DNA from: a plasmid
Direction: 5' to 3' (one strand)
Sequence record: NZ_CP023785.1
DNA length: 64,000 nt
Position numbers and translations under genes: made by a program. This document shows positions 37,213 to 46,825 of the stretch, one piece after another. Under the pieces are notes generated by a model. The model saw only the letters and a program-made list of their open reading frames with translations. It was not told the DNA's origin and did no database searches. The stretch's first letter is position 1; every line of letters starts with the position of its first letter.

Positions 37213-38715
37213 ATGTTTAAAAAATTTTCACAATTAGGACGCGCTTTCATGTTACCAATTGCTATATTACCAGTAGCCGGATTACTATTGGGACTGGGAG
37301 GAGCGTTAACAAATGAGAGTGCTATAAATGCTTATCCATTTTTAGATCAACCGTGGTTGCATACAATTTTAAGTATTATGAGTTATGCTGGAAATGCAGT
37401 TTTTGCAAACCTAGCACTAATTTTTGCAATTGGTATTGCTGTAGGACTTGCAAATGGAGATAAAGGAACAGCTGGTTTAGCTGGTGGAGTAGCTTATCTA
37501 GTATATACTGCAACTATTAGTGGGTTTCTTGAACTTTTTTCAGCAAAAGATGCAACACTAGATACAGGTGTAGTGGGATCAATTGTTGTTGGTGGTACTG
37601 TTGCATTTTTACACAATCGTTATAGAAAAATTGAATTACCACAATTCTTAGGTTTTTTTGGAGGATCAAGATTTATTCCGATTGTTTCTAGTTTAGCTGC
37701 AATCATTATTGGTTCTTTCTTTTATTTAATTTGGCCACCAATTCAAAATGGTTTAGTAGTTGCTGGTGAACAAATTGCCCAAATGGGTAGTTTAGGAACT
37801 TTTTTATATGGTTTTTTATTGCGTTTAACAGGTGCTGTTGGACTACACCACACCATTTACCCTTTGTTCTGGTATACATCTTTAGGTGGTACCGAAACTG
37901 TAGCTGGATCAACAATTGCTGGAGCCCAAAATATTTTCTTTGCCCAACTAGCTGATCCAAACCACACTGGTCTGTTTACTTATGGTACTAGATTTTTTGC
38001 AGGAAGATTTGCAACAATGATGTTTGGATTACCAGCAGCATGTTATGCAATGTATCGTGCAATTCCTAAGAAAAATCGTAAAAAGAATGGTGGGCTTTAT
38101 TTTAGCGGGGCCCTTACATCATTTTTAACTGGAATTACTGAACCAGTTGAATATATGTTTTTATTTGTTGCTCCTTGGCTTTATGTGATTCATGCATTCT
38201 TAGATGGATTATCTTTTTATTTTGCTGATATCTTAAATATTCGTGTAGGGAATTCCTTTTCAGGTGGTTTGATCGACTTTTTATTATTCGGTGTACTTCA
38301 AGGGAATGACAAAACTAATTGGTTAAAATTAATTCCTTTTGGTATTGCATGGGCATTTATATATTTCTTTGTTTTTACATTCTTTATCAAAAAATTTAAG
38401 GTAGCTATTCCTGGAATGGAAGAAGAATCAGAAGTTCATTCTGAAAAAGTAATAAACAAAAATACATCATTACATGAAGAGTCTCTTATCATTATTGAAG
38501 CTCTTGGTGGAAAAGAAAATATTGAGTCTGTTGAAGCTTGTGCAACTCGTTTGCGTGTTGCTGTTACGAATGGGGAGATTATTCAAAAACAAACAATAAA
38601 AGACACTGGTGCAACTGCTGTCTTCGAAGTGAAGGGTGGCATCCAAGCTGTTTTTGGAGGGAAAGCTGACTTATTAAGTCAAGAAATCAATCAAATATTA
38701 GGAAAAGATAATTAG
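37213..38715 (+). CDS. PTS glucose/GlcNAc-family EIICB permease (500 aa)
   Basis: An EIIC membrane domain is followed by a C-terminal EIIB with the CATRLRV motif. Confidence 0.85.
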   Translation: MFKKFSQLGRAFMLPIAILPVAGLLLGLGGALTNESAINAYPFLDQPWLHTILSIMSYAGNAVFANLALIFAIGIAVGLANGDKGTAGLAGGVAYLVYTATISGFLELFSAKDATLDTGVVGSIVVGGTVAFLHNRYRKIELPQFLGFFGGSRFIPIVSSLAAIIIGSFFYLIWPPIQNGLVVAGEQIAQMGSLGTFLYGFLLRLTGAVGLHHTIYPLFWYTSLGGTETVAGSTIAGAQNIFFAQLADPNHTGLFTYGTRFFAGRFATMMFGLPAACYAMYRAIPKKNRKKNGGLYFSGALTSFLTGITEPVEYMFLFVAPWLYVIHAFLDGLSFYFADILNIRVGNSFSGGLIDFLLFGVLQGNDKTNWLKLIPFGIAWAFIYFFVFTFFIKKFKVAIPGMEEESEVHSEKVINKNTSLHEESLIIIEALGGKENIESVEACATRLRVAVTNGEIIQKQTIKDTGATAVFEVKGGIQAVFGGKADLLSQEINQILGKDN

Positions 38716-41640: not shown

Positions 41641-41981
41641 TGTGAACTATCCTCACTTAACTAAACTTAACAGTTCTTAACGCTTAAAGTGGTAGTTTTT
41701 ATTAGTAATTGATAGTAGTTAACATGATTTTGATATTTACGAAGAAAATGATATGCAAACCAGTCCGATTTTACTACAAAAGAAATATATTCGTATTTTT
41801 TAGCTCCTTGCTGACGATCAACATTTCTTTAGATGAGACGTTGGGATATTTTATAAATCATTCACATATGAGTTAGACAGTCAATGCATATCAGATATGC
41901 ATTGTAGAACGGATTAAAATATCGTGGATGAAATTATAGATGAATTAAAGGAGACAATTAGGAATTTATGGAGGTAATATA

Positions 41982-42500
41982 ATGAGAACATATAAAAATA
42001 AAGAAGAATTAAAAAAAGAAATAAATAGGACTTATACTAAATATATTTTAGAATTTGAAACTATTCCTGAAGAATTGAAGGATAAAAGAGTTGAGGAAGT
42101 GGATAGAACACCTGCTGAAAATTTAGCATATCAAGTTGGTTGGACGAATTTAATTCTAAAATGGGAAAATGATGAAAGAAATGGATTATCTGTTAAAACG
42201 CCTTCTGATCAATTTAAATGGAATCAGTTAGGAGAGTTATATAAGTGGTTTACAAATACCTATGCACATCTACCATTGAAAGAATTAGAGGAAATTCTCA
42301 ATCGTAATATTGATGATATTAACATGATGATTGATTCAATGAGTGATGAAGATCTATTCACTGCACACAAAAGAAAATGGGCAGACGAGGCAACCAAAAC
42401 GGCTGTATGGGAAGTATATAAATTTATTCATGTAAATACAGTTGCTCCATTTGGGACTTTTAGAACAAAGATAAGAAAATGGAAGAGATTAGCTTTGTAA
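41982..42500 (+). CDS. ClbS/DfsB-family four-helix-bundle protein (DUF1706)
   Basis: 172 aa. The pattern VGW..L.LKWE...G..V..P...FKWN.LG.LY..F...Y....L.EL...L......M........LF......W...TK....W......NTVAPF...R.KIRKW matches the family by recall. Confidence 0.6.
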   Translation: MRTYKNKEELKKEINRTYTKYILEFETIPEELKDKRVEEVDRTPAENLAYQVGWTNLILKWENDERNGLSVKTPSDQFKWNQLGELYKWFTNTYAHLPLKELEEILNRNIDDINMMIDSMSDEDLFTAHKRKWADEATKTAVWEVYKFIHVNTVAPFGTFRTKIRKWKRLAL

Positions 42501-43552: not shown

Positions 43553-43725
43553 ATGTTTACAAGTTATATCTGGTTTAATAAGTTTTTTTCTGTTAGTCAT
43601 GGCATGTTTTATTGTGCTGGTTCATCAATATATTGAAATGTACTAAAATGAAATTTTCAGTTATGGTATAATATTTATGCTGTCTGCTACCCCGGCCTAT
43701 TATGGCAAGGGGAGGAGGTTGTATT

Positions 43726-43842
43726 ATGAATTACCTTTTCGATATGTTTTTTGCAATCTTAGCAGAAGTATCCGCGCATTACATCTGTAAATGGCTTGAT
43801 TGCAAAATTATTGCCAAAAAAGACAGTAAGCCTACCCGTTAA
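43726..43842 (+). CDS. Fst/Ldr-like type I toxin peptide (38 aa, MNYLFDMFFAILAEVSAHYICKWLDCKIIAKKDSKPTR)
   Basis: It has a strong GGGGAGGAGG RBS and an upstream TGgTATAAT extended -10 with a structured 5-prime UTR. A hydrophobic helix is followed by a WLD motif and a charged tail, resembling Fst-family toxins. Confidence 0.5.
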   Translation: MNYLFDMFFAILAEVSAHYICKWLDCKIIAKKDSKPTR

Positions 43843-43861
43843 TCTGAATAGAACGTAAAAG

Positions 43862-43892
43862 AAAACCACTAGCCCGCCAGCTAGTGGTTTTT
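43862..43892. terminator. bidirectional rho-independent terminator (aaaaccactagc-ccgcc-agctagtggtttttgg) with T/A runs on both strands
   Basis: Read directly. It sits between the toxin ORF and the convergent antisense promoter. Confidence 0.6.
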
Positions 43893-43925
43893 GGTGTATC
43901 ATGAATTACCTTTTCGTTAAAACAA
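43893..43925 (-). ncRNA. candidate RNA II-type antitoxin sRNA (convergent to toxin mRNA; contains complement of the toxin start region via direct repeat atgaattaccttttcg at 43901-43916)
   Basis: The minus-strand promoter is TTGTAT-16-TGgTATAAT (forward coords ~43925-43952). The transcript would run through the direct-repeat copy into the shared terminator. Confidence 0.4.
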
Positions 43926-44575
43926 TTATACCATATTTCCTAAAAAATACAATTAATAGACGAATTATCATTACCACTTTGATGAAAAAAGCTGACATAA
44001 ATTTTTCTTTTATTTTTATAATGAATAAACATTTATCAATAAGCTTTTGAAAGGCAGGATCGTACTTTGTTGATGATTGAGATATTGCTACATCAATCTC
44101 AGCAGTTAAGATTTTTTTGAATTGTTGCTTGAATTTTTTCTTTATCTAAAAAAATTGTATCTCCAGGATGCAACCCATTTTCTTTAAGAAATTCCTTTTA
44201 AATTGTTAATACTACTGAGTGCCCCACTTCTCTGAATTTTCTTTAACTTCTCCCTCCCCTTTTTTATTTGTATATACATTCATATACGCTTGTTAATATC
44301 AAATCAACCGTAGTCTCTCTTATGTCTAATTATATAGAAAGATTGTTCTTTCTATATAATTTAGACAATTTAAAAAATTAAGATTGCCTCCTTCTGTTTC
44401 CTTTCCTATTCATGTATACCATTTATTTTAAATTATTAAATCTATACCTATTTATCTGCTTTTTTGAAATAAATTAATAAATTTCAGAGTATACCAATTG
44501 ACAAAACACTCTATAATTGGTATAGTCCAATTATAGAGATACTCCTCTCCCCTACTTATCGAAAGGATGAATAAC

Positions 44576-45661
44576 ATGAAAAATACAGAAATATATCAAA
44601 AAATAGATACAATCATACTTCATATGCCCGATTATATAAAAGATTTTGTTCAAGATCGTGAGGATAAAGATCAATCACCTCGAACTACTTTAGAATATCT
44701 AAAAAATTATAAGCTCTTTTATGAATGGCTTCTGAGTGAGTCTATCGTTCCCGATACTTCAATCACCTCGATAAGACAGTTAACTGCCTATGATCTAAAC
44801 TTGTACAAATCTCATTTGAAACGTCGCACAAAGGAAAATGTAAAAAAAGAGACAACAAAAACTAAGCTCAAAGATAATAATAACTTAGGTCTATCTACTT
44901 CTACTATCAATAGAAATATCACAGCATTAAAGGTTCTATTTAAATATCTTTCGAAAAGTTCCAATAATCCTTTAGGAAAACCATACTTAGAAAATAATCC
45001 TATGGATCAAGTAGCAACTATCACAGATAAAACTACGTTAGCTGCCCGTGCAAACGCAATCGAGAAAAAATTATTTCTAGACGAAGATACACAAAATTAT
45101 CTAGATTATATTGCCAATGAATATAAAAAAACTTTGAGCAAACGAGCTTTGATCTATTATCAACGAGATGTAGAAAGAGACCTGGCGATCAATGCATTGA
45201 TTTTAGGATCTGGATTAAGACTCTCCGAGGTTGTAAATATTAATTTAGAGGACCTATCTTTAGAAAAGAATAATGTGGTAGTAACTAGAAAAGGAAATAA
45301 GAGAGACGCAGTAAATATAGCAGCATTTGCAATGGAATATTTAGCTAATTATCTAGCTATTCGGAAAGAACGATACAAAGTAACAGAAAACGAAAAAGCT
45401 TTATTTCTAGCAATTTATCAAGGAGAAGCCAAGCGTATATCCGGTATTGCAATCGAACGGATGGTAGCAAAATATTCAAAAGGATTCAGAGTCCAAGTCA
45501 GTCCACATAAATTACGTCATACTTTGGCTACTAGACTCTATCAACAGACAAATTCATTGGTATTAACTGCCCAACAATTGGGACATACAAGTACAAATAC
45601 AACAACTTTATATACTCATATAGACAATGCAGCTACAATTGATGCTTTGAACGCTTTGTAA
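44576..45661 (+). CDS. tyrosine recombinase (XerC/XerD-like, ~362 aa)
   Basis: The C-terminal catalytic motifs LRHTLATRLYQQT, LGHTSTNTTTLYTH with R-H-R-Y are present. The internal ATG start has an AAAGGA RBS. Confidence 0.8.
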   Translation: MKNTEIYQKIDTIILHMPDYIKDFVQDREDKDQSPRTTLEYLKNYKLFYEWLLSESIVPDTSITSIRQLTAYDLNLYKSHLKRRTKENVKKETTKTKLKDNNNLGLSTSTINRNITALKVLFKYLSKSSNNPLGKPYLENNPMDQVATITDKTTLAARANAIEKKLFLDEDTQNYLDYIANEYKKTLSKRALIYYQRDVERDLAINALILGSGLRLSEVVNINLEDLSLEKNNVVVTRKGNKRDAVNIAAFAMEYLANYLAIRKERYKVTENEKALFLAIYQGEAKRISGIAIERMVAKYSKGFRVQVSPHKLRHTLATRLYQQTNSLVLTAQQLGHTSTNTTTLYTHIDNAATIDALNAL

Positions 45662-45756: not shown

Positions 45757-46825
45757 TTATTTGTCAAATTAAGCGAGACAAAACTTTCCATTTACGTAAC
45801 TCAAAAAAACTTCTAATGGTGTTTGGTAATTTAGTGATTTTCTAGGGATATGGTTTCTTTTGGACGCAACGGATGAGATGAATCCTTGATTGACTTGGTT
45901 GAATTCCATTTCTTTTGGTAGTCCATCTTTTCGGAGGAGTCCGTTTGAATGTTCATTTAATCCCCGTTGGGAAGGCGTTCCTGGGTCTGCGAAATAAATA
46001 TCAATATCATTCGTATTACTAATACTTTTCCAATTAGAGAATTCTTTTCCACAATCAAAGGTAATTGATTTGAAAAGATTTTTGGGTACGGATTGAAGCC
46101 ATTCATTAATCGAATTTTCAATATCAACTGCCTTACGGCCTTCTGGTTTCAAGGCGATAATGGCTTTTGAAAGTCGCTCAACGAGTGTGATGACGGCACT
46201 TTTATGGTGGATGCCGACAATCGTATCACCCTCTAAATGTCCAAATTCTTCTTCGAAAACGACATAATCTTTTTTACGTTCAGAAATATTTCTTTTGAAT
46301 GCCTGTTTTCCACGTTTTTCCTTATAACCATTTGGTTTTCGTTTTCCTTGCATCGGTAAATGTAAAACATTGAATTCTCCCGTCTTAAACCGGCGATAGA
46401 GGGTACTTACTGAACAAGAGAAGGTTCGCTCTGCACGGCCAATAATGACGTCTGGGGTCCAACCTTCAGTTGATCTTTTTTCAATGTATTCTTTTTCCTC
46501 AGCAGGAAAAATGATTTCGGTTCTCCCACAACGTCGCTTATTTTCTTTGTATTGTTCAAAGTATTCAAGTGCTGTTCCACCACATTTGAGAAAGTTATAG
46601 ACATTGTAAATTGTTTGGCGTCCACGTTTAAGCTGCTTCGCAACGATAGCAACCGGAGTTTCTTGATGAAAATATGCTTCTATCATTACAAGCTCGTTTG
46701 GTGTAAGATGGGTATAAGTCATTTATGTTCACTCTCCTTGTATGCTTTAGCGGGTATTACAATTTGAGTGTAACATAAATGGCTTTTTTATTTGTCTCGC
46801 TTAATTATACAAACGGCGATACTTA
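45757..46825 (-). mobile_element. IS30-family insertion sequence, copy 2 (identical to copy 1)
   Basis: It has the same IRs and the same transposase (45769..46722). Confidence 0.85.
45769..46722 (-). CDS. IS30-family transposase (317 aa)
   Basis: Identical to 8474..9427. Confidence 0.9.
   Translation of the reverse strand: MTYTHLTPNELVMIEAYFHQETPVAIVAKQLKRGRQTIYNVYNFLKCGGTALEYFEQYKENKRRCGRTEIIFPAEEKEYIEKRSTEGWTPDVIIGRAERTFSCSVSTLYRRFKTGEFNVLHLPMQGKRKPNGYKEKRGKQAFKRNISERKKDYVVFEEEFGHLEGDTIVGIHHKSAVITLVERLSKAIIALKPEGRKAVDIENSINEWLQSVPKNLFKSITFDCGKEFSNWKSISNTNDIDIYFADPGTPSQRGLNEHSNGLLRKDGLPKEMEFNQVNQGFISSVASKRNHIPRKSLNYQTPLEVFLSYVNGKFCLA

Follow-up and report, generated by a model that had tools for sequence, protein, structure and literature searches.

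In the par locus carried by plasmid pAD1 from Enterococcus faecalis, convergent promoters give rise to the toxin mRNA RNA I (~210–220 nucleotides, nt), which encodes the peptide Fst, and to the antisense RNA II (~60–70 nt), and the two transcripts share a bidirectional terminator. A repeat makes the 5′ end of the antitoxin RNA complementary to the translation initiation region of the toxin, the Shine-Dalgarno (SD) sequence and the 5′ end of the mRNA are sequestered intramolecularly (PMC7472228), and the toxin is a small single-helix peptide with a charged tail. The par architecture and the Fst/Ldr signature, i.e., a Trp residue after a hydrophobic helix, followed by a charged tail, are defined in PMC7472228 and PMC8147318. 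Tandem relatives of Fst, Fst-A and Fst-B, are encoded between fcsR and adcA of Streptococcus pneumoniae, where an antisense small RNA (sRNA) and the toxicity of Fst-B were reported (Fozo et al. 2010). Here, we analyzed a 64,000-nt stretch of plasmid DNA (record NZ_CP023785.1), referred to as the window, and found in it a ~290 bp cassette (43664–43952) on an Enterococcus faecium megaplasmid that we consider, with high confidence, to be a par/Fst-like type I toxin-antitoxin (TA) module. The cassette resembles pAD1 par in all the respects listed above, including its plasmid location, with the sequestration of the SD sequence and of the mRNA 5′ end being predicted here. It adds to the known par/Fst-like kind of type I TA system, and its mechanism is not new.

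The candidate toxin is encoded by an open reading frame (ORF) of 38 amino acid residues (MNYLFDMFFAILAEVSAHYICKWLDCKIIAKKDSKPTR), which spans positions 43726–43842 of the plus strand, stop codon included; it is present in the ORF list and shows the synonymous bias and family matches described below. Its SD sequence (GGGGAGGAGG, 43709–43718, plus strand) was read 7 nt upstream of the ATG. The promoter of the toxin mRNA is an extended −10 element (TGGTATAAT, 43664–43672, plus strand) that lacks a good −35 element and depends on the extended −10; the TG-n-TATAAT pattern is kept in all paralogs of the cassette, although n varies. On the minus strand, the RNA II promoter (43925–43952) consists of the −35 element TTGTAT (43952–43947), a 16-nt spacer, and TG-n-TATAAT (43933–43925), again in the form TGGTATAAT, and TTG[C/T]AT-16-TGnTATAAT is kept in the paralogs. 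An identical 11-mer, TATGGTATAAT, is common to both promoters. The bidirectional intrinsic terminator of both RNAs was found at 43862–43891; its perfect 12-bp stem (arms 43862–43873 and 43880–43891) and 6-nt loop are preceded by an A-run and followed by a T-run. This was the sole terminator-like site in a 1-kb scan, where 0.3 were expected. Finally, a 25-nt direct repeat (23/25 identity, self-BLAST E = 1.5e-4) is present at 43720–43744 and 43895–43919 (plus strand). Copy 1, the predicted target of RNA II, comprises the spacer, the start codon, and codons 2–7, and copy 2, when transcribed from the minus strand, would supply RNA II with a 5′ part that is complementary to copy 1. Where the cassette has this one repeat with two mismatches, pAD1 par has two separate repeats, DRa and DRb. 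The ORF, the very strong ribosome-binding site, both promoters, and the perfect hairpin with its flanking A- and T-runs had all been pointed out in an earlier, sequence-only reading of this DNA and were found as it had described them. The direct repeat had also been seen there, but as a 16-nt element, and this length proved too short.

Promoter-like sequences, a hairpin, and a repeat could co-occur by chance in AT-rich intergenic DNA. The motif TGNTATAAT occurs 10 times in the window versus 5.1 expected, and a generic promoter scan does not flag the promoter sites of the cassette. Since this enrichment is only ~twofold, the promoters alone are weak evidence, and the case rests on conservation rather than on motif matching. 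Four of the 10 TGNTATAAT sites belong to the two type I TA modules of the window. The cassette region matches 429–444 records of complete plasmids (PLSDB), almost all of them from Enterococcus, and the 431 bases around the cassette are 100% identical to many E. faecium megaplasmids of 130–260 kb, such as pTT39_p1 (NZ_CP023424.1) and Aus0085 p1. Conservation of the whole cassette as a unit, in ~440 plasmid records and in distant genomes, together with the co-variation described below, argues that the arrangement is above chance. These comparative data refute a chance origin, the detection of both RNAs in a paralog also speaks against it, and we regard its probability as negligible.

Rfam family RF02442 (SpF66_sRNA) matched the cassette over the full model length (43688–43903) and was the only relevant Rfam family found there. 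Its score of 42.1 bits lies at the gathering score of 42, in comparison to 49–56 bits for the enterococcal paralogs and 70–115 bits for relatives on streptococcal plasmids (47–115 bits for paralogs and relatives overall). The assignment is sound because these paralogs and relatives score well above the window copy. SpF66 is the sRNA F66/srn502 of S. pneumoniae TIGR4 (2086087–2086325), located between SP2168 and SP2169, which we take to be fcsR and adcA. Going by this gene neighborhood, the site of SpF66 is the fst-A/fst-B locus that Fozo et al. (2010) validated, and the adjacent srn503/F67 was annotated as an Fst-family type I toxin in a 2025 study. The window cassette and the pneumococcal locus (RF02442/F66/srn502) share the toxin-mRNA family and a 3′-convergent antisense RNA, whereas in S. 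pneumoniae the locus is on the chromosome and fcsR and adcA enclose tandem copies. The translated Rfam consensus line, which is approximate, yields a peptide that ends in CKWLDGKE and shares the CKWLD core with the window peptide, but differs from it in carrying DXXXG and a short tail.

Transcription of such a cassette was recorded by differential RNA sequencing of E. faecium AUS0004 (Michaux et al. 2020, PMC7724050). On plasmid p1 of this strain, sRNA_128 (41816–42040, minus strand, 224 nt, an SpF66 hit) has transcription start sites at 42035 and 42040, and sRNA_127 (41793–41866, plus strand, 73 nt) has a start site at 41793 and a terminator at 41820–41851. The two transcripts converge and share this RNA-seq-annotated terminator, and they rank 13 and 15 among the highest-coverage predicted sRNAs (PMC7724050). 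The region encoding them (L068) is a paralogous cassette of the same layout, ~80% identical to the window cassette. It differs from the latter in its repeat class (TTGAAAATTCTTTTTG), its TTG start codon, its position beside ssb and AbiE in a 56-kb plasmid, and its cataloguing as two sRNAs. Two short convergent transcripts, suggested as a check in the sequence-only reading, are thus on record for this ~80% identical paralog rather than for the window copy itself. The start sites 42035 and 41793 of the paralog project to positions 43679 and 43918 of the window, each 7 nt past a −10 box, and its 3′ ends project to ~43895 and ~43850. Together with the RF02442 match, these projections place the RNA I-like toxin mRNA at 43679–43895 (plus strand, ~217 nt) and the RNA II-like antitoxin RNA at 43850–43918 (minus strand, ~60–70 nt).

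The entries just described could be read differently, as two non-coding, trans-acting regulatory sRNAs with a fortuitous ORF. Rfam types RF02442 as "Gene; sRNA", and in the catalogue of Michaux et al. both RNAs are intergenic sRNAs for which trans targets are predicted; the main text of their article does not discuss sRNA_127 or sRNA_128 or call them a TA pair (PMC7724050). However, the ORF has a strong SD sequence at optimal distance, its peptide motif is kept through many synonymous changes and across phyla-level distances at which the nucleotides diverge, the repeat targets exactly the translation initiation region, and the peptide of the homologous locus in pneumococci is a validated toxin (Fozo et al. 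2010). A purely non-coding role is very improbable in our view. If the locus is a par-like module, the two abundant AUS0004 sRNAs would be reinterpreted as a toxin mRNA and its antitoxin, and SpF66 would be a toxin-mRNA family extending well beyond Streptococcus.

The paralogs of the cassette are 78–81% identical to it, and the alignable region is bounded by the toxin −10 box on one side and the RNA II −35 box on the other. One class (L002–L004) is located directly upstream of ssb, followed by AbiEii/AbiEi, which looks like the leading region of a conjugative plasmid. Another class (L005–L010) lies between a RelE/ParE-AbrB type II TA system and repA. The window class was counted in ~150 plasmid records (≥99% identity), the repA-adjacent class in ~350 (≥95%), and the ssb-adjacent class in 174 (≥99%). 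It follows from these counts that many plasmids carry two or three cassettes, which belong to different repeat classes. The repeat sequence is ATGAATTACCTTTTCG in the window class, TTGAAAATTCTTTTTG in the ssb class, and ATGAAATACCT[T/C]TT[T/C]G in the repA class, and a fourth repeat pair, TGCAAATCATAG, was found on a Lactococcus raffinolactis plasmid. In every one of these classes (three enterococcal and one from Lactococcus), the repeat matches the start-codon region of its own class. For duplexes of the mRNA start region with the 5′ end of the antisense RNA, the predicted energies were −30 to −34 kcal/mol for cognate pairs and −11 to −26 kcal/mol for non-cognate pairs.

A peptide-pattern search, limited to a single genome from each species, added 50 further loci, which belong to Enterococcus, small Streptococcus plasmids, Granulicatella, Vagococcus, Clostridia, Lachnospiraceae, Oscillospiraceae, and Selenomonas. 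The layout was examined in 33 loci (32 of the 50 and the window). A hairpin was present 3′ of the ORF in all but one of them, and a start-region repeat with a score of at least 12 (compared to scores of 5–7 ± 1 in shuffled sequences) was present 3–25 nt past the hairpin in 20 of the 33. The claim of the sequence-only reading that the antisense RNA would be complementary to the toxin initiation region has gained weight, as the repeat co-varies across the specificity classes and in most of the distant loci examined. This co-variation is the strongest in silico sign that the antisense RNA pairs with the translation initiation region, and the co-varying repeat classes lend themselves to testing how specific antisense RNA recognition is. 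Two ORFs overlapping RNA II were considered and rejected, both being unannotated in the records listed: a 49-residue ORF (43901–44050, plus strand) has no SD sequence, and a 47-residue ORF (43759–43902, minus strand) loses its start codon in the paralogs of the L002 class.

The folding of the toxin mRNA was analyzed on 17 diverse homologs. RNAalifold recovered the terminator and a conserved internal helix, formed by the inverted repeat UUUUGCAAUC/GAUUGCAAAA (43749–43758 with 43798–43807, plus strand; 43749–43807 overall) and enclosing a nested hairpin, and many compensatory changes were observed in both. A long-range helix appeared in the minimum free energy (MFE) fold, where the 5′ arm GCUGUCU (43679–43685, plus strand) pairs with the 3′ arm AGACAGU (43821–43827, plus strand), a pairing supported by pair counts across the homologs. 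In this 5′–3′ helix, 77% of the cells were paired versus 17–49% in slid controls, and five of the seven pairs showed compensatory changes on both sides. In one homolog (L046), the segment of the 3′ arm falls after the stop codon, yet its nucleotide sequence is still conserved, and therefore a constraint at the RNA level is likely to act on this arm.

The SD sequence is paired both in the full-length fold and in the fold of the isolated 5′ untranslated region (UTR). In the latter, a 5′ UTR hairpin (CCCCGGCC...GGCAAGGGG, 43690–43712, plus strand) base pairs the 5′ part of the SD sequence. An anti-SD hairpin of this kind, between an upstream pyrimidine tract and the SD sequence, forms in all 17 homolog 5′ UTRs that were folded, with differing inner stems; these predicted folds are the evidence for SD sequestration. 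The GC-rich segment that the sequence-only reading had proposed as sequestering the SD is in agreement with this. In the full-length MFE fold, the SD instead pairs with codons 3–5 (43712–43719 with 43733–43740). Under either fold, the SD sequence is predicted to be buried, and both RNA I features of the par architecture, the upstream helix that sequesters the 5′ end and the 5′ stem-loop that sequesters the SD (PMC7472228), have counterparts in the predicted structure. The RNA I/RNA II logic of par that was recognized in the sequence-only reading is supported by these structures and, independently, by the RF02442 match, the transcripts of the paralog, and the co-variation of the repeat.

Wherever the exact 38-residue sequence occurs in public databases, it is entered as a "hypothetical protein" or an "uncharacterized protein". 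In a profile search, 70 of 1.8 billion cluster representatives matched at E ≤ 1e-3, nearly all of them 25–40 residues long or read-through or tandem versions. They share the core A-x-V-x-A-[H/Y/N]-Y-I-C-K-W-L-D, followed by a short polar tail. The peptide belongs to a widespread, unnamed family, here termed "YICKWLD", which is spread over Lactobacillales, Clostridia, and Negativicutes and has no curated model. In the HYICKWLD codons of 31 distinct nucleotide versions, there were 1552 synonymous and 141 non-synonymous differences, a ratio that is inflated, as the loci were chosen by a pattern containing the HYICKWLD motif. This bias shows that the conservation of HYICKWLD acts at the level of the peptide. 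The family could be defined for a profile model, so that annotation pipelines would stop missing it. In the gene calls of two metagenomic relatives (P0007 and P0009), the YICKWLD peptide appears twice, as a fused tandem, which indicates tandem cassette arrays in some Firmicutes, similar to pneumococcal fst-A/fst-B.

The AlphaFold model of the window peptide is a single helix (residues 3–33) with a mean predicted local distance difference test (pLDDT) score of 72.5. The Fst/Ldr signature is present, since W23 follows the predicted helix and the tail (DCKIIAKKDSKPTR) is charged. The family profile was aligned by hhalign with Fst (2KV5) and PepA1 (4B19), the sequences of which were verified against the PDB. 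Both alignments had P ~4e-4, a probability of 34–38%, and a consistent register, in which W23 is matched with the Trp residue of PepA1 and with V24 in Fst, and A10...E14 falls on PXXXG. In contrast to Fst of pAD1, the window peptide has A10...E14 in place of PXXXG, Trp in place of Val, and a basic tail in place of an acidic one. No PDB entry was hit, whether the single peptide or the family profile served as query, and a full-text literature search for CKWLD returned one unrelated paper only.

The comparison with curated models was less favorable. A search against the Fst/Ldr hidden Markov models (HMMs) had been proposed together with the label "Fst-family toxin", and the window peptide gave no hit at E ≤ 10 to PF13955 (Fst_toxin), PF13940 (Ldr_toxin), or NF033608, so that no HMM similarity to pAD1 Fst was detected. 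TxpA/Hol_Tox (PF16935) does not match it either. No Pfam model was hit at E ≤ 10, and the sole hit to a curated model was to NF047374, the model of Clostridioides difficile type I toxins (15.3 bits, E = 0.02, cut-off 60). Among the 31 relatives, sub-threshold hits were obtained with NF047374 (12), NF033608 (3, best 5.5e-5), Ldr_toxin (3), and Fst_toxin (1), and the translated SpF66 consensus scored 18.9 bits on NF033608 (cut-off 26). The 12 of 31 YICKWLD members that hit NF047374 did so at E < 1 (best 8e-4), all far below the cut-off (15 versus 60 bits). The C. difficile toxins are likewise small hydrophobic peptides with weak sequence resemblance to the window peptide, but they are ~50 residues long and have other antitoxin arrangements. 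Of the Fst-family label, the Trp after the helix, the charged tail, and the register with Fst and PepA1 stand, whereas the PXXXG motif and the match to Fst/Ldr HMMs do not. Homology of the peptide to Fst is plausible from these alignments, and we file the locus as par/Fst-like by its architecture and RNA family.

The YICKWLD peptides might instead form a distinct toxin family beyond divergent Fst, with at least three mutually orthogonal RNA II classes on E. faecium megaplasmids; we find this doubtful, although it deserves consideration. The near-invariant Cys, Lys, Trp, and Asp residues and the frequent His suggest a specific target or an oligomer rather than generic membrane damage. If the family is distinct and the classes are orthogonal, two or three cassettes could act independently on one replicon, resulting in stacked addiction.

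As a par/Fst-like module, the cassette would operate as follows. The constitutive extended −10 promoter would produce a compact, stable mRNA of ~217 nt encoding a membrane peptide with 38 residues and a single helix. As long as this mRNA is free, its SD sequence would be buried by pairing with the upstream pyrimidine tract in the 5′ hairpin or with codons 3–5, and the long-range helix would link its 5′ end to the 3′ part of the ORF. The stronger convergent promoter, with a −35 element and an extended −10, would yield the antitoxin RNA of ~60–70 nt. The 3′ half of this RNA would be the complement of the shared terminator, and, since the start-codon region of the mRNA is repeated 3′ of the terminator, its 5′ 25 nt would be complementary to that region. 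Pairing of RNA II at the terminator and at the start region would block ribosome loading. Upon plasmid loss, the antitoxin RNA would not be replaced, and the persisting mRNA would be translated and harm the cell (post-segregational killing). Toxicity, the relative half-lives of the two RNAs, and plasmid stabilization are expected here on the model of pAD1 par and S. pneumoniae fst.

Several observations weigh against this interpretation. The P/D/S/T-XXX-G motif is absent from the helix of the window peptide, where the aligned positions are A10-I-L-A-E14, and Pro and Gly of PXXXG are essential in Fst of pAD1 (PMC7472228); some relatives within the YICKWLD family do carry S/T-XXX-G. The hydrophobic segment holds the polar residues D6, E14, and H18. 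In scans of Pfam, NCBIfam, PHROGs, and PADLOC, the peptide was above threshold in none. Comparative support for the pairing of the SD with downstream codons is weak, and the transcript data come from a paralog of another specificity class and not from the window copy. Unlike in pAD1 par, the YUNR U-turn motif is absent from the RNA I terminator loop (CCGCCA, with no U); this motif is not universal among par/Fst homologs (PMC7472228). Finally, in a repA-adjacent paralog (L011; NZ_CP116518.1, pR39-1-A, ~1700–1730), a natural deletion of ~95 bp, bounded by two A-runs, has taken out the terminator together with the RNA II gene and its promoter, but leaves the toxin promoter and ORF intact. Only one cassette copy was found in this plasmid record. 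If the toxin is lethal, such a copy would not be expected, unless instability of the truncated mRNA or RNA II acting in trans accounts for it.

The survival of this copy with an intact toxin ORF and no RNA II gene would be easier to explain if the product were an antisense-regulated small membrane peptide with a role in the membrane or in stress, and no part in plasmid addiction. The peptide indeed has no PXXXG and is more polar than is usual in transmembrane helices of the Fst type, chromosomes (e.g., of Enterococcus mundtii) and large contigs also hold relatives, and chromosomal Fst loci are thought to have non-addiction roles (PMC7472228, PMC8147318). Opposed to this, plasmids hold almost every enterococcal copy, and the copies are found next to other TA systems and to replication or leading-region genes. 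The presence of several orthogonal copies on one plasmid is in line with addiction, and the related Fst-B of S. pneumoniae was reported toxic (Fozo et al. 2010). The chromosomal copy of E. mundtii QU25 (L015; AP013036.1, 2430–2720) also speaks for a toxin. It is almost identical to the window cassette, but its toxin promoter is changed from TGGTATAAT to GGGTATGAT, its RNA II −10 element from TATAAT to TATAGT, and a 2-nt deletion alters the C-terminus of the peptide. These promoter-down mutations and the altered C-terminus are suggestive of a decaying toxin gene. On balance, we judge a role without addiction to be improbable, if clearly less so than the non-coding and chance explanations, and we favor the par/Fst-like TA module. 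Its par-like identity would add a maintenance function to pLG1-type megaplasmids and pRUM-like plasmids that bear resistance genes.

The host replicon of the window is an E. faecium pLG1-type megaplasmid, and most plasmid records with the cassette or its paralogs derive from clinical E. faecium. In the plasmid records listed, no annotated feature lies beneath the cassette match; the peptide is unnamed in all records inspected, and one record labels it a hypothetical protein. Upstream, the cassette is flanked by a ClbS/DfsB gene, and its downstream neighbors are xerS and IS30. The gene of the XerS-type tyrosine recombinase (44567–45661) is located directly 3′ of the cassette and is followed by the IS30 transposase gene (45769–46722). 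The 300 bases upstream of xerS were viewed by eye. A weak similarity to the cassette at 37373–37416 of the window was considered as a second copy and rejected, as it lies inside a phosphotransferase system EIIC gene and is attributable to chance.

"Listeria phage" (UNVERIFIED_ORG) is the label given at deposition to two short wastewater contigs, OR847552.1 (L013) and OR849365.1. Over the aligned cassette, L013 hardly differs from L006/L007, which are enterococcal repA-adjacent paralogs, and it is probably an enterococcal plasmid fragment and not phage DNA.

A second, unrelated type I TA system is present in the same window at 4455–4793. Its minus-strand ORF of 34 residues (MSAYETIQTILGFGMFTIALISLIVNMLKNDKKK, ~4577–4678) matches Pfam Hol_Tox (PF16935) with 55.4 bits, and its toxin mRNA matches Rfam rli28 (4611–4793, 105.7 bits). 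The convergent antitoxin RNA, RatA (RF01776), is located at 4460–4548, and TGCTATAAT promoters were found at 4455 (plus strand) and 4786 (minus strand).

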